Shown: in pieces, positions 1,959 to 63,199 of the stretch | Numbering within the stretch: position 1 is the first letter of the stretch | Layout: each line of letters starts with the position of its first letter | IMG/VR virus record: IMGVR_UViG_3300020577_007690 | Coordinates: 10,782 to 74,781 of that record | Source of the DNA: a virus | Lineage: Duplodnaviria; Caudoviricetes | Reading direction: 5' to 3' (one strand) | DNA: 64,000 bases | Notes under the pieces: model-generated | Told to the model about the DNA's origin: nothing | The model's database searches: none | Seen by the model: only the letters and a program-made list of their open reading frames with translations | Made by a program: the position numbers and the translations under genes

Positions 1959-2278
1959 CACAGCTCCCTCGCCACCGCCAGCGCGTAGCAGGAAACCGTC
2001 AGCGCCTGAAGCAGGCGCACGACGATGAGCAGGTGCCACAAGTCTGCGAATCCTGCCCACAGGAAGATGCCGAACCACAGGAGGCCCAGAAGACCGCGCA
2101 CCGCATCGAGCGGCCGACGCTCCCGATCAGAGGTGGAGGGGCTGAGCGCCGCGATCTTTGCGACGGCAGCGCCAGCGAAGAAGATGGCGATGGGCCACCA
2201 CCACACCGGCATGCGCGCGTCGAGCGCTGCCAGGGTGGCGATGACCCACACCGTATAGCTGATCCAGTAGACGATCAT
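1958..2278 (-). CDS. Membrane protein (3-4 TM segments)
   Basis: Strongly hydrophobic 106-aa ORF coupled to its neighbours. Confidence 0.65.
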   Translation of the reverse strand: MIVYWISYTVWVIATLAALDARMPVWWWPIAIFFAGAAVAKIAALSPSTSDRERRPLDAVRGLLGLLWFGIFLWAGFADLWHLLIVVRLLQALTVSCYALAVAREL

Positions 2279-3207
2279 GACGCCGCAGGCTCCGGCGCCT
2301 TGTCCTTCTTCGTGGGGAGCTTCTCCAGCTTGTGCTTGATGCTCATGTACTGGGCACGCTCGGCGGGGTCCTTGATGGGCATGATCTGCGAGGACAGCGC
2401 ACCATCGACCAGCGCAATGAGCTTGTCGCGCTCAATGACCGTCATGCGCTCCCAGGTGACGCGCGGGGCCTTCTCGACCTCGTCTTCGGGCGTCTCGCCG
2501 CGGAGGGCCGCCTTGCGGCCCTTGTCGTCCTCTGCCGACAGGTACGTCTCGATGACGGCGGCCTGCGCCTCGTGGTCGGGGAAGCGCTTGCACAGCAGGA
2601 TGGCGTCGGGGAGGATGAGCACCTCCTTGGCGACAGCCTCTTGCACCGCGGGCGACGAGGCCAGGATGCCGTTCGGCGACACGGCGCGGCGCAGCTCGCC
2701 AGGGTTGCGGAAGAAGTTGGGGAACTTCTTCAGCACGTCCTCCTCGGTGACGCCGAGGTTGAGCATGTCGTACGCCGTCGTGATCCGCGTCATGGCATCG
2801 TTGCCCTTGCGGACCTCATTCTCGGAGATGTACTTGTCGCGCAGCTCCGCGTCGCTCATGCGCTGCTCCATGAGCACGCCGATGGTGATCGGGGGCTCAT
2901 TGCGCTCCGCGCGTCGCTTGTTGACCTCGCGGCAGGCGATGACGCGCCGATTGCCGAACGCCGTCTCCTTCAGCCACTCCCCGTTGGCCTGGCGAAGGCG
3001 AACGGTGATGAGCTGAAGCACACCCTGCTTCTCGATGTCATTGATCAGCTCGATCATCTGCGGATCTTCGAGCCGGTAGCGCATGCTGCGCAGCGGGGTG
3101 TGCAGCGTGTGACCGAGATCAGCCACGGTGAGGAGATCCTCGGGCTTGAACCGCGCGAAGTCTCCTCGACCAGCCGCGCCTGCCTTCTTCAGTTGCTCCG
3201 AACCCAT
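2275..3207 (-). CDS. ParB/RepB/Spo0J-family protein
   Basis: ELINDIEKQGVLQLITVR...GNRRVIAC...ISENEVR ParB signature followed by an HTH-like region; GGAGG SD. Confidence 0.8.
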   Translation of the reverse strand: MGSEQLKKAGAAGRGDFARFKPEDLLTVADLGHTLHTPLRSMRYRLEDPQMIELINDIEKQGVLQLITVRLRQANGEWLKETAFGNRRVIACREVNKRRAERNEPPITIGVLMEQRMSDAELRDKYISENEVRKGNDAMTRITTAYDMLNLGVTEEDVLKKFPNFFRNPGELRRAVSPNGILASSPAVQEAVAKEVLILPDAILLCKRFPDHEAQAAVIETYLSAEDDKGRKAALRGETPEDEVEKAPRVTWERMTVIERDKLIALVDGALSSQIMPIKDPAERAQYMSIKHKLEKLPTKKDKAPEPAAS

Positions 3208-6810: not shown

Positions 6811-6836
6811 TGCTCCCTCCTATCATCAACTCACGC

Positions 6837-6866
6837 GCACCGTGGAGCGGTGAGGCTCCACGGTGC
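6837..6866. terminator. GC-rich hairpin (terminator or processing site)
   Basis: GCACCGTGGAGC-6nt-GCTCCACGGTGC, 12-bp perfect intergenic stem; no clear U tract. Confidence 0.55.
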
Positions 6867-6870
6867 TCCG

Positions 6871-7251
6871 TCAGGCGACGAGCGGAATGGTGGACGGGTC
6901 GATCTCGGACAGCCACCGAGAGCCGATGATCTGGCCGTGCTTGATGATGACCCGTGCGAAGTGGTCGAAGATGATCACTTCGAAGTGCAAGTGATCACGG
7001 TCGATGGTGATCATGTTCGCGTTGACGAACGCGATCAGATCGCCGCTCGGGTAAACCGCGAGACTCGCCAGCCGCTTGCTTGGCGAGACACGGCAGTCCG
7101 TCACGATGCAGTACGGACCGATCTGCATCCCGCCTTTCGACTTCGGCGAGGCGAACGGCATCTTCGGATTGTGACCGCTCGGGTACTTCTCGAAGCGCGA
7201 GAAGAAGTCGTGGAAACTTCGCTTCTCGGGCATGTACAGCTTGTCCGACAT
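6871..7251 (-). CDS. Hypothetical protein (126 aa)
   Basis: GATAGGAGG SD. Confidence 0.65.
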   Translation of the reverse strand: MSDKLYMPEKRSFHDFFSRFEKYPSGHNPKMPFASPKSKGGMQIGPYCIVTDCRVSPSKRLASLAVYPSGDLIAFVNANMITIDRDHLHFEVIIFDHFARVIIKHGQIIGSRWLSEIDPSTIPLVA

Positions 7252-7362
7252 TGGACCTCCTATCTACTGCTCAGAAGAAGAGCGTGGGCGACCAGCTCCA
7301 CGACCGGATGTCTCTGTGCTCCTGCGCGTCCATGACGCAGAAGTACCGGGTGCTCCTCTGCT

Positions 7363-7390
7363 GAGCGGTAGGCAGGAGCGCCTACCGCTC
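7363..7390. terminator. GC-rich hairpin
   Basis: GAGCGGTAGGC-6nt-GCCTACCGCTC, 11-bp intergenic stem. Confidence 0.5.
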
Positions 7391-7394
7391 GCCG

Positions 7395-7631
7395 TCACGC
7401 CGACGGATTGAGGTAGTAGCGATCCGGGTCCGGCTTGCCACCGTAGCGACGCGCCAGCTCCGCTGCCGGAAGCTTCCGGCACAAGATCAGATCCGGCATA
7501 CCGATCCGATGGATCGGATCACAGTCGATGCCGCTGCGCAGCATGGCGCGCAACATGGTCCGAATGCGACCATGCGCCGCGCGCTTGCTTGCCTTGCGCG
7601 CCATTCGGTCGCGCTTGTCTCCGTTTGCCAT
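7395..7631 (-). CDS. Small basic hypothetical protein
   Basis: GATAGGAGG SD. Confidence 0.6.
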   Translation of the reverse strand: MANGDKRDRMARKASKRAAHGRIRTMLRAMLRSGIDCDPIHRIGMPDLILCRKLPAAELARRYGGKPDPDRYYLNPSA

Positions 7632-7643
7632 CTCTTGATCCTC

Positions 7644-7814
7644 CTATCCGAGACTGCGCACACGCTTGCGCTGGAAACTCGGCGAGGACACCTTGCGCGC
7701 ATCGCGCATAGGCGCCTTGACCACCGTCTTAGGTCCGACCACGAAAGCACCGCGCACACTGGCGAGCACCTTCGCCGCAATCGGATCGATCGCGTCCGGC
7801 TTGTCACGCTTCAT
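7644..7814 (-). CDS. Small basic hypothetical protein (56 aa, not in ORF track)
   Basis: MKRDKPDAIDPIAAK...RSLG; GATAGGAGG SD; its stop lies inside the SD of the next gene. Confidence 0.55.
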   Translation of the reverse strand: MKRDKPDAIDPIAAKVLASVRGAFVVGPKTVVKAPMRDARKVSSPSFQRKRVRSLG

Positions 7815-7942
7815 AGTGCGATCCTCCTATCGATCGGCGCACAGATACGCAGCGTCAACACGCTAGCGCTCGCATGCTCATTTCAGTGCACCTATGCGCC
7901 GATCGATAGCCTGTAGCGCTCCGCGGAGCGCTACAGCGTGGA

Positions 7943-8095
7943 TCAACGCCAATCCGCTGGCGCTACCTGTAGCATGTCGCGATCGTCACGCAAAACGATC
8001 GCGACATGCGCGGCATTCATTCGCCGCGCGCGGCGAATTGCAACGATCAGAGCAGACTCCGAAGGATTGACAACAATTATCCGTTTAGTTTCCAT
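7943..8095 (-). CDS. Small protein METKRIIVVN...(50 aa) starting inside the left inverted-repeat arm
   Basis: Start codon mirrors ATG 8537 in the right arm. Confidence 0.45.
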   Translation of the reverse strand: METKRIIVVNPSESALIVAIRRARRMNAAHVAIVLRDDRDMLQVAPADWR

Positions 8096-8195
8096 CTCTC
8101 ACTCCGTCCTTTCACCACCTAGTCTAGTCACGCTTCACAGGATTCCAACACTGAACAAACAACTATTTTGTTCAGTGCTGCTTTTCCTGTCCTAC
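8088..8195 (-). repeat. Left arm of ~107-bp inverted repeat
   Basis: Reverse complement of 8439-8544 apart from a 2-nt indel, one substitution and a small local rearrangement. Confidence 0.95.
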
Positions 8196-8288
8196 CTGGT
8201 ATCAGCCTCTAGACTAGCTCCATTTCAACGCAGGATGAGCTAGGACAAGCGATCGGCGTCTACCTGGTACACCTATACAGGCTTCAAG

Positions 8289-8297
8289 TTATCCACA
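8289..8297 (+). promoter_or_regulatory. Consensus DnaA box TTATCCACA
   Basis: Exact 9-mer in the low-GC spacer between the inverted repeats. Confidence 0.55.
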
Positions 8298-8438
8298 GGC
8301 TACAGGAGAGTAGGCAATTGGTCCAACCATCCGATATCTGACCATTGGATGGTAGGATATCCTACCTGTAGGTTATTGGATGGTTGGATAGGTGGTTATC
8401 GGATGGCTCAATGGTCCAACCATCCAATGTGTGCTGAT

Positions 8439-8544
8439 GTAGGACAGGAAAAGCAGCACTGAACAAAATAGTTTGTTGTTCAGTGTTGGAATCCGGTGAA
8501 GCGTGACTAGACTAGGTGGTGAAAGGACGGAGTGAGATGGAAAC
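8439..8544 (+). repeat. Right arm of ~107-bp inverted repeat, carrying an outward promoter, SD and ATG
   Basis: Contains CACTGAACAA..TTGTTCAGTG palindrome, TTGGAA-N16-TAGACT, GAAAGGA/GGAG SD and ATGGAAAC. Confidence 0.95.
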
Positions 8545-8929
8545 GACGGAAACGAAACAGGCGCCGCGCGCATTCGATTGGATCGGCAGTATGTGCGCCG
8601 CTGTGATCATGTCCGATCGCAAGCGCCGCGAGCCTACGATCGCGCCGCGCAGTGCCAGCATGATCGATCGGACCTTCGCACGCAACGATCGGACGCATGC
8701 GGAGAACATGCGTCAAGCGCGATCGGTGGCGCGGCGTCCGAGCGCTCCGCGCATGATCGAGCGCTCCGCACCGATCGCGGCGCCGATCGAAGAAAGCACT
8801 TCAGATCGTGCGTGTGACGTTGCCGCGCATGAGGACAATTTGATGATGATGCTACACATTCGTTGCCTGCTAGGTATCGGCGGCGATCTGCCTGACATCA
8901 GCAAGGATCGCCTAGACAAAGGCGTCTAG
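8537..8929 (+). CDS. Low-complexity Arg/Ala/Ser-rich protein, first rightward early gene
   Basis: Starts inside the right arm; repeated MIDR/MIER units; GATC-rich DNA. Confidence 0.5.
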   Translation: METTETKQAPRAFDWIGSMCAAVIMSDRKRREPTIAPRSASMIDRTFARNDRTHAENMRQARSVARRPSAPRMIERSAPIAAPIEESTSDRACDVAAHEDNLMMMLHIRCLLGIGGDLPDISKDRLDKGV

Positions 8930-9003
8930 TCTTTCTCGGATTCTGAGGCGAGCGCTGCCACCGAAAGGTGGCCGCTCACCTCACTACCCGAGAGGAGGTC
9001 TCA

Positions 9004-9123
9004 ATGGAGATCGAGATCATCAAGCGTCGCCGTCTGCCTGACGGATCGCTCAGCATCGCCCGCAGGTACATCGCTCCGGCGATCTACTTCGTCGAGTGTG
9101 CGGACTGGTGGGTGACGTCGTGA
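9004..9123 (+). CDS. Small hypothetical protein (39 aa)
   Basis: GAGGAGG SD; MEIEIIKRRRLPDG... Confidence 0.5.
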   Translation: MEIEIIKRRRLPDGSLSIARRYIAPAIYFVECADWWVTS

Positions 9124-9158
9124 CGCGCCTCACGCTCTCGTCGGAGCAGGCTGTGCCG

Positions 9159-9719
9159 ATGGCACGGCTTGCCTTCCCAGACTTCACCGGGAAGCGCTTC
9201 GAGTTCGACACGCGGACCATGTACGAGGTCCGATCGTACGAGCTGTGCTGGTCTGAAGGAACCAAGAAGGAGGTCAAGATCCTCCGCCAGCGACCGGAAG
9301 GCGGCCTGGACGTCGTCGAGTTGACAGCGCTGTCTCCCTGGGACAACGGTCGCTGGTTCACCGAGGACTTACCCAAGAACATGCTCATCGTCGAGCGGCA
9401 CTACAGCGGCAACCGGCAGTACGTGACCTTCACCGCGGCGCCCGGCTCGACCTTCGTACCGCAAGGCTTGCTCGACAAGCCGCAGATGGAGCTGACGCGG
9501 GATGAGCGGATGGTGTTGCTTGCTCACAAGCAACTCACCTCTGCGGCCCGCCCAGCGAGCTATGTACGGAATGGCCTCAATCCGGCGCGGCTGGAAGCGG
9601 CGATCGTGTCCCTCGTGAGCAAGAAGTTGCTCACGCGAAACCGTGCCGGATCGTCCATGGCGACGATCGAAGGCAAGAACGTGGCGCGAACCTTGCCCGA
9701 AGCAGGTTCGTTCTACTGA
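9159..9719 (+). CDS. Hypothetical protein with possible C-terminal winged helix
   Basis: GC3 bias; C-terminal AAIVSLVSKKLLTRN. Confidence 0.65.
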   Translation: MARLAFPDFTGKRFEFDTRTMYEVRSYELCWSEGTKKEVKILRQRPEGGLDVVELTALSPWDNGRWFTEDLPKNMLIVERHYSGNRQYVTFTAAPGSTFVPQGLLDKPQMELTRDERMVLLAHKQLTSAARPASYVRNGLNPARLEAAIVSLVSKKLLTRNRAGSSMATIEGKNVARTLPEAGSFY

Positions 9720-11011: not shown

Positions 11012-12280
11012 ATGATGTTCGAACAGGGGGCCGCGAGCGATGTCGCTCGCGCCGTGGAGGATGCCAAGCTTGCGCTCGCCGCAGGCTTCACCCTCCCAGA
11101 GACAGTGGTCCCGTTCGGGACCAAGGTGATCGACAGCGGCCAGGGGCTGTACCGCGAGAGCGAGCAGGCATTTGACGCGATGGAGAACGTGGACGACGTT
11201 CTCGATCAGCTTATCGCCCGCGTCGCCATGGAGGACCGTCGAGACATCAAGCTCGACTCGCTCTTCCGCAACCTGATGATGCGCAACGATGGGGCGCTCA
11301 TCCTGAAGGGTCAGCCGAACGCTCCCTCTCTCTTCATGAGCGAGACGGCGTTCGGCCAGCTCGCCAACTATGAGTACAAGGGCAAGCGGCTCATGCCGTC
11401 GAGCGCCATGTCGTACCTCTCGGACGACATGACGCCGATCGAGCACCGCGCCCGCGACGTCTCGGACTGGATACAGCGTGCGCAGCCGCCGCACAAGATG
11501 AAGCTGCGCACGCGGATGAAGAAGGGGCTCCCCCTGGAGAAGGGGGTAGCGGCGCGCGAGCTGTTCGCGATCACCAGCCCGACCTACAACACGGACGGGG
11601 ATGTGGACAAGGTCGCCGGCATGCTCAAGGAGATGCAGCTTCAGGGCGCCAAGGGGCGCGCGAAGTACGACGGCGAGCGCTGGACGATCACCTGGCTCTA
11701 CCACTCGACCATCGGCCAGGGTGAGAGCGTCGTCGCCGGAGAGGTCTTCGAGCTGGCGATCGTCGTCGGCGGCGCCGACGCGCGGAACGGCGGCCTCTGG
11801 GTCCAGATGCGCGTGCGGCGCAACCTGTGCCTGAACTGGATCATCATCGGAACCGCCGTGCAGAACCTGGGCAAGACCACCCACAACCGGCGCGACCTGA
11901 AGGGCTGGATCTTCGAGCAGGTGGCCGACGCCCTGAAGAGGAGCGACGGCTTCATCCAGAAGTGGAACGACGCCTGGAAGGCGAAGCTCCTCGGCAAGGA
12001 TTACGCCTCGCCCGAGGACGGCTTCGCGGATCTGGTCGCGAGGAACTACCTCAAGCCGCCTGCGGGGAGCGGTCTCGACAAGAAGGACTACATCGCGCGG
12101 CTGGTGTCCAACCACTACCGCGAGAAGGCGGCCTCGCCTTACGGCTACCTGTCGTGGGCGGACGCGGTGAACGCGGCGACGCGCATGCACGAGCATAGCT
12201 GGAAGTCGCCGTGGGCCGTCGATGACCAGGTCGAGCAGGGTAGCGCGCTGCTTCAGCACGTCTACGTGCTCGACAACTAG
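11012..12280 (+). CDS. DUF932-family protein
   Basis: FAITSPTY...KYDGER...GEVF...GGLWV...RRNLCLNW pattern matches the DUF932 core; very strong GC3 bias; CAGGAGG SD. Confidence 0.7.
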   Translation: MMFEQGAASDVARAVEDAKLALAAGFTLPETVVPFGTKVIDSGQGLYRESEQAFDAMENVDDVLDQLIARVAMEDRRDIKLDSLFRNLMMRNDGALILKGQPNAPSLFMSETAFGQLANYEYKGKRLMPSSAMSYLSDDMTPIEHRARDVSDWIQRAQPPHKMKLRTRMKKGLPLEKGVAARELFAITSPTYNTDGDVDKVAGMLKEMQLQGAKGRAKYDGERWTITWLYHSTIGQGESVVAGEVFELAIVVGGADARNGGLWVQMRVRRNLCLNWIIIGTAVQNLGKTTHNRRDLKGWIFEQVADALKRSDGFIQKWNDAWKAKLLGKDYASPEDGFADLVARNYLKPPAGSGLDKKDYIARLVSNHYREKAASPYGYLSWADAVNAATRMHEHSWKSPWAVDDQVEQGSALLQHVYVLDN

Positions 12281-13993: not shown

Positions 13994-14338
13994 ATGTCCG
14001 ACCACTCAGAAACCGAAGCCGAGGATGACCTTCCCCCACGTCCGCGCACACGCAAGGACTGCCAGCTCGGCGGTAGCAACGACACGCGCCCCTGCGCATT
14101 CGTGAGCTGCCGCCACCATCTCTATCTCGACGTCAACCCCGAGACTGGAAGCATCAAGTTCAACTACCCACACCTTGAAGTGTGGGAGCTGCCGCAGAGT
14201 TGCGCACTTGATGTCGCCGATCGGGGTGGTGTTACACTAGACGAGGTTGGTGAGATCACGAACTTGACCCGCGAACGGATACGTCAGATAGAGGTCAAGG
14301 GTCTGTTGAAGCTGAAGAAGAAATCAAGGGAGGATTGA
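13994..14338 (+). CDS. Stand-alone sigma70 region-4 HTH protein with N-terminal Cys/His motif (myxobacterial type)
   Basis: RPRTRKDC...[16 protein letters not shown] and [28 protein letters not shown] (region 4.2 TRERIRQIE signature). Confidence 0.85.
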
Positions 14339-52249: not shown

Positions 52250-53899
52250 TTACCTCGCTCGGTACTGGTTCTTCTCGATCTTCACCTCGCCGAGCCCGAT
52301 GCGGCACCCCTCCCGACCGATCCATGTCGCCATGAGCCTGTCGCCGCTGTGCTCCAGCGGCGAGTAGCGCACCATGTCGCTGATGAGCTGGCGAAGGTCC
52401 CGCTCCAGGTGCGACAGGACGTCGTTGAGCTTGGCGAACGGCCACCTGCCCGACTCGTCCACAGCGGGAGACGGGAACTCCCAGCGTCCGATGTGCATCT
52501 CGCCGCCGAGCGACTCAACGCCGAAGTGCTCATCGAACTTGTTGTAGCGGTGGGTGTCGAAGCACCGCACCTCCAGCTCGTCTGCGTAGTGACCACCGAG
52601 CGCTTGCACCACGGCGGGATCGTCCGCGAAGTCGGTGATGTACTTCTGCGCTCCGTTGGTCTCGACCCAGAATTCTGGCACCTCGCCGCCAGGGATGGTG
52701 AAGCGACGATGGAGCGAGATCATGCAGCGGATGATGTCGGTGCCGTGGAAGCGCCCAGACTCGATGCACAGGAGGCGGCGTGACCAGTTGGGGCGCATGC
52801 CGATCACGGTGAAGACCGTCTCGTCTGTGCTCTTCTTCGCGCGTCCCGGCGGGCGCTTCGTTGCTAGGTCCACACCGATGAAGATCTTGAGGAAGGTCTC
52901 TCCCTTGCCGTCTGTGCTTGTCGCCTCGCTGACGTTCTCGCACCACGGCAGACCAGCGCCCTTCTTCAGGGCGCGCATGATCCAGTCCTCCTTGAAGATC
53001 TCCGTTGCGTCGTCTCGTGCGACGCACTCGTACTGCCGAGCAAACGCCTTCTGGTTGTCCTCCAACTCCTCCCGCTTCTCCATGATGCGGTCGATCGGCC
53101 ACTGCTCGGGCCAGCAGCTCTTCATCCAGCATCCCTTCTCCTCGACGTAGACGGCGTCTTTCTCTCCTTCCTCCGCCTTCTCCCAGATCGGGTAGCGTTC
53201 CGTGTGCCACACACGCTCGTTGTGGAGCTTGTGGAGCATGTCCCGCGGGTGCCAGGCGTTGGCGACCATGATGACCTGCGCACCGCGCGTGAGGCGCCCG
53301 ACGAGCGTCTCGTTGTACCAGTTGTAGAGATCCTCGCGCATCTCCTCTGTGCGCGTGTTCTCCTGCGACAGGGGGTCGTCGAGCACGAGCAGATCGATAC
53401 GAGAGCCGAGGATGTTACCGTGCGCGCCGAACGCCTGGACGGTCGGGTTGCGACCATCCCAGCCTGCGACGGTGATCGTCGTGGAGTTCCACGACTCACC
53501 CTTCGTGATGTGGGGGAAGATCTCGCGGTAGCGCTCCGACAGCAGCACCTTCTGAAGACCGGCGATGATCTTCATTGCCTGCGGGCGCTGCGTGTTGCTC
53601 ATGATGGCGACACGCAGACGCGGGTTGCACCCGATGCGCCAGGCGACGTAGCCGATCGACACCTGTACCGACTTGCCGATCTCGACAGAGCCCCACAGGA
53701 TGAAGCGCTTGTGTTTGTTGCAGTGCGCGTGCCATTCCTTGTGGATGCGCGCCATCTTGATGCGGCGACCCGTCGCCTCGTCTTCGAGCACGTAGGCGGC
53801 GAACGTCGCCGAATCGGAACGGCAGAGCGCCAGGAGCGCTTCTTTTCGCTTCTGAGGAGGGAGTTCTGCTAGGGATTGGTAGATGGTGGCGCTTTGCAC
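52250..53899 (-). CDS. terL: Terminase large subunit
   Basis: Walker A variant GSVEIGKS, Walker B LLVLDDP, nuclease IGVDLA and late DRLMA. Confidence 0.9.
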   Translation of the reverse strand: MQSATIYQSLAELPPQKRKEALLALCRSDSATFAAYVLEDEATGRRIKMARIHKEWHAHCNKHKRFILWGSVEIGKSVQVSIGYVAWRIGCNPRLRVAIMSNTQRPQAMKIIAGLQKVLLSERYREIFPHITKGESWNSTTITVAGWDGRNPTVQAFGAHGNILGSRIDLLVLDDPLSQENTRTEEMREDLYNWYNETLVGRLTRGAQVIMVANAWHPRDMLHKLHNERVWHTERYPIWEKAEEGEKDAVYVEEKGCWMKSCWPEQWPIDRIMEKREELEDNQKAFARQYECVARDDATEIFKEDWIMRALKKGAGLPWCENVSEATSTDGKGETFLKIFIGVDLATKRPPGRAKKSTDETVFTVIGMRPNWSRRLLCIESGRFHGTDIIRCMISLHRRFTIPGGEVPEFWVETNGAQKYITDFADDPAVVQALGGHYADELEVRCFDTHRYNKFDEHFGVESLGGEMHIGRWEFPSPAVDESGRWPFAKLNDVLSHLERDLRQLISDMVRYSPLEHSGDRLMATWIGREGCRIGLGEVKIEKNQYRAR

Positions 53900-57264: not shown

Positions 57265-57312
57265 AACATGGGCCTTTTGAAATTAAAAGGAAAGTGCGAA
57301 CGTGCGTTCAGT
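57265..57312 (-). promoter_or_regulatory. CTGAAC-box promoter 7 (response regulator, leaderless)
   Basis: Box 57296-57312; TTTCCT-N17-CATGTT-6nt-ATG; 25 nt. Confidence 0.65.
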
Positions 57313-57386: not shown

Positions 57387-57707
57387 CTACGAAGACTTCT
57401 TCGACTTCTTGGGCTCGCGGACGGTGACGATGGTTTCGTCCGCCATCACAAGCAAGTCGTCGATGACCGTGAACGCGCTCATCGCTTTGTCCGCCCGGTC
57501 CTTTATCTTCGACACGTCGAGAAGGTAGTTGGCGAGCCCGATGGCCGTTTCGTGCGAGAGATGCACGCACTCCTGACTCGCAGTAACACCCCCATCTGTC
57601 ACCTCGTTGAGCACGTCGACTGCTCGTTTCGTCTCCGCGTCAGGCTTCCACTTGGGCTTCTTCTCTTCCTTGAGGACAGTGATGCCATCGTTCTTCTGCT
57701 TGCTCAT
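57387..57707 (-). CDS. Hypothetical protein
   Basis: ATGA overlap with the Dam gene. Confidence 0.6.
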   Translation of the reverse strand: MSKQKNDGITVLKEEKKPKWKPDAETKRAVDVLNEVTDGGVTASQECVHLSHETAIGLANYLLDVSKIKDRADKAMSAFTVIDDLLVMADETIVTVREPKKSKKSS

Positions 57708-58564
57708 GACCATGCCTTTCCGATGAGGAAGATGAGTTCTTTGCACCCATCTCTGTTGTGACCCTCGCTATTGACGGAGCGTCGCGCGTGGACAGCCTCC
57801 ACACGCCAGGGAATCTTGGTGCCGAGGATCTGATGCGCCAGATCCTCCATGCAGGAGTAGCTGCCGCTGGAGAGCATGACGTTCGCCCCACGCGACGCGG
57901 CGGTGAGGCAGCACTCGATCAGGTGCCGATCCTCCTTCTCGTCCCAGCCCTTGGCGGTGTATTGCGTGTATCCGCCACTGTACGGCGGATCGCAGTACCA
58001 GAACGAGCCCACTCGGCAGAAGTCGACGAACGCAGACACGAAGTCCATGTGATCGATCTTCACGCCGCGCAGCGCCGACGACGCGGCACGTAGGTTGTCG
58101 ATGTCGAAGACGGGCGGAACGACCTCCTTCTTGTTGTTGCGACCGATCGGCGTGTTGAACAGCCCGCCGCGGTTGTAACGCACCACGCCGTTCATGCAGG
58201 CGCGGTTGAGCCAGAGGAAGCGCGCCGCCGCGGTCTTGGTCGGACCAGGTAGCTTGTTGCGCAACTGGTAGTAGTAGGTCTCGAAGCCCTCCTTCTCGGC
58301 GAACTTCATCATCATCGACAGGTCTGCCTGTAGACCGTCAACGTCGTCGCGGACCCGCTTGTACGTGCTCACGATGTCGTTGTTGTAGTCGGAGAGGTAG
58401 ACATCCTTGTCCGCGAGCACGCCCTTCTCCTGAAGCGCGAAGAACAGCGCGCCGCCGCCGAGAAAGACTTCATGATACGAAGTAAAACTCTCCGGGACAT
58501 ATTTCGTCAGCTCCGGCAGGAGCTGTCGCTTGCCGCCGACGATGCGAAGGATGGGCTCAGCCAT
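57704..58564 (-). CDS. dam: Dam-family N6-adenine DNA methyltransferase
   Basis: GGKRQL, YHEVFLGGGALFF, FLWLNRACMNG..RYN..G.FNTPIG and DPPY. Confidence 0.9.
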   Translation of the reverse strand: MAEPILRIVGGKRQLLPELTKYVPESFTSYHEVFLGGGALFFALQEKGVLADKDVYLSDYNNDIVSTYKRVRDDVDGLQADLSMMMKFAEKEGFETYYYQLRNKLPGPTKTAAARFLWLNRACMNGVVRYNRGGLFNTPIGRNNKKEVVPPVFDIDNLRAASSALRGVKIDHMDFVSAFVDFCRVGSFWYCDPPYSGGYTQYTAKGWDEKEDRHLIECCLTAASRGANVMLSSGSYSCMEDLAHQILGTKIPWRVEAVHARRSVNSEGHNRDGCKELIFLIGKAWS

Positions 58565-59166: not shown

Positions 59167-59432
59167 CAGTACGCCTCTCCCGGGTAGCACCACGCCTCGA
59201 CGCAGCGCCACTCTCCTGTGGGTTCCAGCCAGAACGTGGCCTCGAATCGGTCTGGTTTGAGCATGATGCCCTTGAACGATCCGTTCCAGACGTACACTCG
59301 CCTCGTATCGGCCACCATACGCGAGAGCGCGCAGCGCGCCAGATACTCCGCACCCTTCCTCTGAAGGGTGGCGATCTCTTCAGGCGTTGGTGTGTACCGG
59401 ATGCGCTCAGCGATGTTAGGCAGCATCCCCAT
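59166..59432 (-). CDS. Hypothetical protein
   Basis: AGGAG SD. Confidence 0.55.
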   Translation of the reverse strand: MGMLPNIAERIRYTPTPEEIATLQRKGAEYLARCALSRMVADTRRVYVWNGSFKGIMLKPDRFEATFWLEPTGEWRCVEAWCYPGEAY

Positions 59433-59808
59433 CTCCTACCGAAAACTGGCGGTCGCAGCGCGAGCACTGGTACTGAAAGCTCCCCTTGAACGCGATGTCG
59501 CCGTGACAGAACGGGCAGAAGTTGGCGCTCAGAGCCAGGGGCGCCGGGAACTTGTCCGCCAGCTCGAAGCCGCTCGTCATGGTGCCCGCCTTGAGCCACC
59601 CCTTCCTGCGCAGCGCCTTGAGACGGCACCACACAGCGTGCGTGGTGATGCGGAACTCGCCGCACACGTCGCGGATGGTCGCGTGCGGGTTGTCGATGAT
59701 GTAGCGCAACGTCTGCTCCTGCACGACAGAGAGCAGCACGGAGCCGTGTCGGTGCGCTTCGAGATCCTGCGGCGACAGCGGCCCTCGCCTACGTTTTTGA
59801 GCGTCCAT
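59416..59808 (-). CDS. LexA-type winged-helix DNA-binding domain fused to a zinc ribbon; no S24 peptidase domain
   Basis: LSVVQEQTLRYII...TIRDVCGEFRITTHAVWCRLKALRRKGWL matches the LexA N-terminal pattern; C-terminal CPFC...CSRC. Confidence 0.7.
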   Translation of the reverse strand: MDAQKRRRGPLSPQDLEAHRHGSVLLSVVQEQTLRYIIDNPHATIRDVCGEFRITTHAVWCRLKALRRKGWLKAGTMTSGFELADKFPAPLALSANFCPFCHGDIAFKGSFQYQCSRCDRQFSVGDGDAA

Positions 59809-59815
59809 GGAACGG

Positions 59816-59864
59816 AGCATGCGTTAAGTAGACGATTCCTGGCAAGCCCGTACGTCTGTTCAGC
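59816..59864 (-). promoter_or_regulatory. CTGAAC-box promoter 8 (LexA-like gene)
   Basis: Box CCGTACGTCTGTTCAGC, 16/17 to CTRHAMRYBYGTTCAGS; TTGCCA-N18-CATGCT; 26 nt. Confidence 0.7.
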
Positions 59865-62986: not shown

Positions 62987-63199
62987 ATGAGCGCACACAT
63001 CATCACTCCGAAGCGCCGTATCGAGTTCACCATCCGCGAAGGGGACCGCGTCGCCAAGACCATCGTGCTCGACGCGGATCGAGTCATCATCGCCAAGGAT
63101 CTGGACGGCAAGACCCATGTCGAGCTGATCGGCGATGAGGCGCCTCCGGCTCCGCTGCGCCGGATGCCTGCGCCGCAGTCCGCACGCCTGACGCACTGA
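62987..63199 (+). CDS. Small beta-rich protein
   Basis: Leaderless start; GC3 bias. Confidence 0.6.
   Translation: MSAHIITPKRRIEFTIREGDRVAKTIVLDADRVIIAKDLDGKTHVELIGDEAPPAPLRRMPAPQSARLTH

Follow-up and report, generated by a model that had tools for sequence, protein, structure and literature searches.

What is the function of a locus in which two long inverted copies of the same DNA, separated by a short non-coding spacer, face away from each other into two long divergent operons: control of transcription, initiation of replication, DNA inversion, or the formation of genome ends? This question is raised by a hub located within the window analyzed here, that is, a stretch of 64,000 nucleotides comprising bases 10782–74781 of a 74.8-kb viral contig that is classed as linear and is estimated to be 84% complete. 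The contig has a GC content of ~63% and is very distant from any cultured phage; its large terminase (TerL; 52250–53899) shares at most 24% identity with known terminases, and the few Pfam matches are to baseplate J, LysM, NUDIX, Dam-type methylase, dUTPase, and GNAT. We consider it fairly probable (roughly 0.6) that the locus acts as a bidirectional promoter hub, containing a control platform for protein binding and also serving as a joint for module exchange.

A repeat search identified two arms of 99 nt (8097–8195 and 8439–8537) that are 97% complementary, with 243 nt between them; when a 2-nt indel is allowed, the repeat extends past the ATG to 8088 and 8544 (108 and 106 nt, respectively), in agreement with the ~107-bp inverted repeats around a 243-bp spacer described in a first-pass annotation of this DNA. 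There is no second inverted pair of this kind anywhere in the 74.8-kb record. Because the repeat runs through the start codons, both first ORFs begin with M-E-T, as had been noted, and direct reading recovers the other elements previously assigned to each arm, namely, a palindrome (with 10-nt half-sites; two matches in the window against none expected), the TTGGAA-N16-TAGACT hexamer pair, a Shine–Dalgarno sequence (SD), and an ATG. The arms are the AT-richest 50-bp windows of the contig, and the hub is the AT-richest stretch of the whole contig at scales of 50–400 bp. The features of the arms are as follows.

8088–8195, minus strand: left arm, a predicted promoter cassette pointing left, with a 20-nt arm-specific upstream element and a CTGAAC box
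8149–8177, 8143–8148, 8121–8126, and 8093–8095, minus strand: palindrome, −35, −10, and ATG, respectively, of the left arm, which also contains an SD
8439–8544, plus strand: right arm, the mirror copy, a predicted promoter pointing right, with the CTGAAC box at 8459–8464
8457–8485, 8486–8491, 8508–8513, ~8523–8532, and 8537, plus strand: palindrome, −35, −10 (after a 16-nt spacer), SD, and ATG, respectively, of the right arm

A generic sigma-70 scan did not call the arm promoters because these match at only 8 of the 12 positions. Scanning the window with a phage-specific −35/−10 pattern yielded nine sites, both arms included, against 1.4 expected; six of the nine lie upstream of genes or RNAs, and five of these six have a CTGAAC box. 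In the best copies (3599, 10344, 20755, and 22614), the box is located 12 nt 5′ of the hexamer TT[GA]GA[AT], and the copy at 63196 has a weaker hexamer at the 12-nt distance; in promoters of this type, a TAnnnT hexamer lies 16–17 nt beyond the TT[GA]GA[AT] hexamer. From this shared layout, we infer that the arms belong to a class of promoter cassettes found throughout the genome and are active as promoters. Copies of the CTGAAC box at 57306, 60419, and 62934 read GAAC-N4-GTTC, which is the Cheo-type LexA core of Gram-positive bacteria; deviations from this sequence are seen in the best-conserved copies of the box.

Relatives of the hub were reached via homologs of two flanking proteins and the members of their clusters, which led to about six related metagenome contigs (L146, taken from a 114.7-kb contig, L151, L156, L005, L147, L142, and L154). 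One protein that was used to find relatives is the following neighbor.

11012–12280, plus strand: 422-aa protein, DUF932-like by language-model features and predicted structure

Among the more distant relatives found through this protein (L006–L010, 28–41% identity), no comparable repeat, DnaA box, or motif was detected; in such distant relatives, the DUF932-like gene is part of a replication module that also encodes primase, PolB, and RecA-like proteins. The hub has no nucleotide match in known phages and plasmids; in the viral collection, protein queries retrieved no close relatives and scans with DNA patterns produced chance matches or none, and the matches listed for a metagenome scan with an 11-mer pair include unrelated repeats. 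With regard to the host, a tRNA search of the contig found none and hence gave no clue. A cyanobacterial host, suggested by the HIP1 idea, was dropped because the contig lacks the octamer GCGATCGC, despite 80 copies of the CGATCG core of this octamer. GATC occurs 591 times in the contig (approximately once per 127 bp), with a single copy inside the hub, and the phage encodes a Dam-type methylase (57704–58564).

Three of the related contigs, L146, L151, and L156, which come from other samples and other assemblers, cross the hub in full and are collinear across it, in the same arrangement and orientation, which rules out both an assembly artefact and genome ends joined during assembly; the earlier proposal of inverted terminal repeats joined in the assembly is rejected on the same grounds. 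More broadly, the hub might be a cis-acting site of the genome end, such as a pac or cos site, a telomere-resolution site, or a stop signal for injection similar to that of phage T5, and, in this respect, four contigs terminate in or at an arm (one of the arms in the case of L142 and L154; the left arm, with the spacer retained, in L005 and L147). The proposed T5 injection-stop region likewise consists of conserved non-coding repeats and DnaA boxes next to variable genes (10.1101/866236). Specifically, repeat region 3 of T5 contains eight paired DnaA boxes in 131-bp repeats located ~3 kb apart within the terminal repeat, the injection-stop function itself being only a hypothesis (10.1101/866236). 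The hub resembles this region in being strongly conserved and non-coding, with inverted repeats, a spacer, a consensus DnaA box, and poorly conserved neighbors, but differs in having one DnaA box instead of eight paired ones in 131-bp repeats. Moreover, four assemblies (the window, L146, L151, and L156) read through the locus, and contig breaks come as no surprise where a junction varies among strains and where a repeat exceeds k = 31; the variability of the junction among strains accounts for several contigs breaking at the arm. The pac or telomere-resolution site entertained in the first-pass annotation likewise finds no support: no protelomerase (ResT/TelK) was detected, the dyad is interrupted by 243 bp, and TerL is 44 kb distant. 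A genome-end function of any of these kinds therefore seems very improbable.

The two mirrored promoter/SD/ATG modules, which were proposed to head the divergent operons, are retained in five related contigs, in support of that proposal. In all 10 arms (10/10), the −35 and −10 hexamers are invariant, and the positions between and after them vary. The palindrome follows a different pattern. The window and L156 have its 10-bp stem, owing to a 9-bp insertion in both arms that creates the palindrome, but the stem is missing from the arms of L146, L151, L147, and L005; the arms of the L146 clade have exactly the ordinary geometry, with the box 12 nt from the −35 hexamer and only one half of the palindrome. 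The palindrome is haplotype-specific and, being absent from the L146-clade arms, is not an essential hairpin or operator dyad. A role as an intrinsic terminator was rejected, given that the palindrome points inward, forms a weak stem, and is lost in one clade.

The arms evolve in concert. Within a genome, the left and right arms are 1–5 events apart, compared with 5–12 events between same-side arms of different haplotypes, and the 9-bp indel along with several substitutions are common to both arms of a genome. The length of the homogenized tract varies: it covers the inner 69 nt in L146 and L151, and extends over the full arm in L147, L156, and the window. The simplest explanation is that the inverted copies undergo gene conversion. 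Recombination between the arms could, in principle, also invert the spacer, as suggested by the first-pass annotation, and, given that the conserved platform within the spacer (see below) is asymmetric and lies near the right arm, such inversion would shift it to the other promoter. The arms do recombine, as gene conversion implies, but all five contigs that retain the spacer (5/5 assembled contigs) have it in the same orientation relative to the right-hand genes, and no tyrosine or serine recombinase (PF00589, PF00239) was found in the 74.8-kb, 84% complete record. Furthermore, the promoters lie within the arms, so that flipping the spacer would not rewire the links between promoters and genes. 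We consider inversion to be highly unlikely.

A different type of exchange is apparent at the left arm. On the right side of the hub, synteny with the window is preserved in L146 and L151, with 71–90% identity over the ~14 kb compared; on the left side, L146 has a stretch of at least 16.5 kb that matches nothing in the 74.8-kb contig, whether nucleotide or protein sequences are compared. Between 8097 and 9033, L156 matches the window with 97% identity but, outside the left arm, is similar to L146 (113/139 positions, against 49/139 for the window), which locates the crossover at the outer boundary of that arm; by this comparison, L156 is evidently a natural recombinant. In L142, the left operon of the window type is kept, with a different first ORF. 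Judging from these alignments, strains swap their entire left-hand gene module by crossing over at the left arm. Neither this module swap nor the gene conversion figured in the first-pass annotation, whose description of the hub otherwise mostly held up. In the L146 clade, the left module encodes a 790-aa SF2 helicase (ResIII/Helicase_C) with an intein (L152:13380–15752), and nothing resembling this helicase is encoded in the window's own left module. In the contig bases to the left of the window, there are two adjacent genes with SCP2 sterol-carrier domains (L145:5962–6681 and 6828–7805), one of which also carries a dUTPase/dCTP-deaminase-like domain, a fusion that is odd for a phage.

The first segments of the transcripts predicted to start in the two arms are as follows.

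7815–8087, minus strand: left leader, haplotype-specific and structured, with three hairpins and a long stem (7827–7909)
8537–8929, plus strand: gene 1 of the right operon, 130 aa

The three hairpins reported previously are all present, at 7911–7936 (a perfect 13 + 13 match), 7972–8009 (15-nt arms), and 8019–8038 (10 + 10). The first ~300 nt of the left transcript (window positions 7815–8122, minus strand) fold far better than shuffled sequences (z = −9.0, with local z of −4 to −6), and a 50-aa ORF (7943–8095) with a low GC3 of ~0.5, by hand count, overlaps the leader hairpins. A 49-bp element (7896–7944) that includes the 26-bp perfect palindrome 7911–7936 is 100% identical in L142, where the surroundings differ; this palindrome lacks a U-tract. 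These three outer hairpins are not part of the conserved hub. On the right side, the product of 8537–8929 is 65% identical to a 158-aa form in the L146 clade, and this ORF evidently is a real gene. Around its end (8850–9000), we observed a local fold (z ~−5) with a terminator-like hairpin at 8909–8929, which might act as an attenuator separating gene 1 from the remainder of the operon. Searches of Pfam and PHROGs provided no annotation for the neighbor genes of the hub.

Between the arms, the spacer contains a compact set of conserved sites.

8196–8438, no strand: spacer, 243 bp, non-coding, 48.6% GC against 63% for the genome
8286–8301, plus strand: DnaA-box island, 16 conserved nt with a perfect DnaA box at 8289–8297, flanked by variable 8279–8285 and 8302–8308
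8309–8435, no strand: near-invariant block of 127 bp that carries M1 sites and site M2c
8322–8335, plus strand: M1 site 1, one mismatch
8344–8357, minus strand: M1 site 2, one mismatch in the window and none in the L146 clade
8375–8388, minus strand: M1 site 3, perfect
8398–8411, minus strand: M1 site 4, degenerate (10/14), by direct reading
8415–8428, plus strand: M1 site 5, perfect
8191–8201 (plus strand), 8259–8269, and 8361–8371: M2 sites a, b, and c, respectively, 11 bp each, direct

The DnaA box is the sole perfect one in the window, as the first-pass annotation had it, with a probability of 0.0016 of arising by chance in a shuffled spacer, and a scan of the spacer found no further DnaA boxes with up to two mismatches. 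It is conserved in all haplotypes; "perfect" here refers to the consensus, and the preference of the host may differ. The direct repeat previously seen at 8320–8332 and 8413–8425 is real and belongs to M1, a 14-bp motif with five copies in the spacer and none elsewhere in the genome; by direct reading, every M1 site consists of two −35-like pentamers in tandem. M2 has five matches in the window (0.8 expected), three of which are at the hub. The conserved blocks (M2a, M2b, the 16-nt DnaA-box island, and the M1/M2c block) are separated by variable patches (~8210–8228, 8248–8258, 8279–8285, and 8302–8308), and, as an island conserved between such patches, the DnaA box behaves as a discrete constrained element. 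Within the 150-nt core (8286–8435), 148 of the 150 positions are identical in the L146 clade and 145 in L156, compared with ~71% nucleotide identity in the neighboring gene, an invariance that could be due in part to recent exchange rather than constraint, with the three hub haplotypes compared all being close relatives. On the strength of this footprint, the conserved spacer sites are candidate protein-binding sites.

An alternative is that a weak promoter inside the spacer drives transcription of a small structured RNA or of a long structured leader. The spacer does fold better than shuffled sequences on both strands (z = −2.7 and −3.3) and contains two −35/−10-like pairs, but a modest fold signal of this kind is what inverted DNA sites produce anyway, and the internal −10 of the leftward pair is destroyed in L156. 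There is no Rfam match, no terminator, and no canonical CTGAAC-box promoter pointing into the spacer, and the invariance of the block leaves no covariation to weigh. An RNA product of the spacer thus appears improbable.

A more serious contender is an origin of replication, possibly in addition to the promoter role, with the host DnaA bound to its box and a phage initiator bound to the 14-bp sites, and with the AT-rich cassettes or divergent transcription helping to melt the DNA. The improbability of a perfect DnaA box and its conservation between variable patches, the five repeated sites next to it that occur nowhere else in the genome, and the location of all these in the AT-richest region of the contig speak for this function. 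Searches of the contig recognized no Rep3 (Rep3_N), DnaB-type helicase, PolB, or ParA (AAA_31), and, in the absence of a recognizable phage helicase or polymerase, dependence of replication on the host is plausible. In P1 oriR, pSC101, and R6K gamma, a DnaA box, about five short repeats, and the promoter of an adjacent gene are packed into ~250 bp of AT-rich DNA. The hub, which resembles P1 oriR and pSC101 in its layout, follows the same order, from the DnaA box through an array of about five repeats to a promoter, within ~250 bp of AT-rich DNA, but, unlike these iteron-type theta origins, has 14-bp repeats in mixed orientation and uneven phasing, a single DnaA box without degenerate companions, and no recognizable Rep3 or other initiator. 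The orientations of M1 (+ − − − +) and the irregular center-to-center spacings (22, 31, 23, and 17 bp) indicate that these are not classical iterons, that is, phased direct repeats.

Other observations also weigh on the origin. GC skew, a check called for in the first-pass annotation, shows no clear minimum at the hub; it is flat on the left and rising on the right, and is confounded by gene orientation, which makes it uninformative. The two ParB genes invoked previously are reduced to a single ParB_N match (2275–3207, minus strand) that scores 16–18 bits against a cut-off of 26.3; this sub-threshold gene, ~5 kb from the hub, does not amount to a ParABS partition system. Finally, the sites are invariant even though the left module is wholly different between the clades, with an SF2 helicase in one of them, so that any cognate initiator would be encoded either by the host or on the right side. 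Of the plasmid-like origin originally proposed, then, the conserved DnaA-box island and the AT-richness stand, whereas the iterons, a Rep or ParA protein, and an above-threshold ParB do not, and there is only one DnaA box. We rank the regulatory or architectural platform first and keep the origin as a live, if tentative, second, the two being compatible. A point against the platform is that, if purely regulatory, it has no obvious need of a DnaA box.

With respect to the proteins that might occupy the putative platform, three candidates are encoded in the window, all of them within the conserved backbone.

9096–9719, plus strand: gene 3 of the right operon, 560 bp from the hub, with an N-terminal beta domain and a C-terminal winged helix
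13994–14338, plus strand: sigma-4.2-like protein, 114 aa, the last ~38 residues of which match region 4.2 of primary sigma factors, the helix-turn-helix that reads the −35
59416–59820: wHTH/zinc-ribbon protein, a candidate binder in the conserved backbone

The gene 3 product has no Pfam or PHROG match and is 52% identical between the clades. A Foldseek search with the 204-aa model yielded only Ig-like noise for the N-terminal domain; the winged helix (pLDDT 85–93) emerged from a wide structural search, where residues 126–204 matched many MarR, HxlR, TubR, and F-93 chains (Z of 8–9.4), and this domain makes the protein a candidate for binding the hub. The sigma-4.2-like protein has a Cys/His-rich N-terminus and is conserved in every one of the related contigs. 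Unusually for a phage, its sigma-4 domain is free-standing, and it could act as a −35 competitor or decoy reader. With each M1 site composed of tandem −35-like pentamers, this protein is an intriguing candidate partner of M1.

Comparison with known systems helps to place the hub. The immunity region of phage lambda spans ~2.4 kb, with the repressor gene between OL/PL and OR/PR, each of which contains three operators. The hub is similar in that two related, mirrored operator–promoter modules, here predicted, serve divergent early operons; it differs in that the modules are only 243 bp of non-coding DNA apart and are near-identical over ~100 nt, including the SD and ATG. A closer parallel is the PeSL cassette of T4-type phages, which consists of an AT-rich upstream sequence, a sigma-70-like promoter, an optional stem-loop that may sit upstream of the −35, an SD, and a start codon (PMC2839356, PMC4122927). 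PeSL copies border variable gene blocks, and modules are shuffled when these copies recombine (PMC2839356, PMC4122927). The arms of the hub share this anatomy, with an AT-rich upstream sequence, −35 and −10 of a predicted promoter, SD, and ATG, and the hub, too, borders a variable block, with shuffling seen in L156 and L146. Unlike PeSL, there are no numerous dispersed copies but only two near-identical ones, inverted back to back around a conserved non-coding core, and the approximately four further promoters share with them just the box and the hexamers; the stem-loop is present in only two of the three hub haplotypes; the cassette has an extra CTGAAC box at a fixed distance; and the host and the phage lineage are unrelated to those of T4-type phages. 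With these differences, the hub is best filed as PeSL-like promoter cassettes combined with a divergent-promoter control region.

According to the favored reading, the bidirectional promoter hub, two inverted regulatory cassettes, each consisting of an AT-rich upstream element with the CTGAAC box, −35, −10, a short 5′UTR, SD, and ATG, would fire outward into two long divergent operons. Gene conversion would keep both cassettes of a genome near-identical, and the left one would also serve as the crossover point for exchange of the left module. The platform between them, with one DnaA box, five M1, and three M2 candidate sites, would most likely be bound by DnaA of the host and by one or more DNA-binding proteins of the phage, thereby setting the activity of both promoters. 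A more speculative combination, which we regard as rather doubtful, is an origin gated by the host DnaA and enclosed between gene-converted mirror promoters, where divergent transcription and DnaA would jointly open the AT-rich core and the cassettes would be the joints for swaps of early or replication modules around a fixed origin; as an added twist, the free-standing sigma-4.2 protein (13994–14338) could read the putative M1 pentamers.

For the biology of this phage lineage, which is otherwise almost unannotatable, the hub provides a testable cis-element, and the footprint in the spacer reduces it to a short list of sites (one DnaA box, five M1, and three M2) along with the three candidate DNA-binding proteins. 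More generally, this locus apparently extends natural module exchange at a promoter cassette beyond T4-like phages, with an actual recombinant, L156, at hand and with one flank of the junction taken up by a wholly non-homologous module at least 16.5 kb long. Inverted regulatory cassettes that are kept identical, probably by gene conversion, would matter for the modeling of phage mosaicism.
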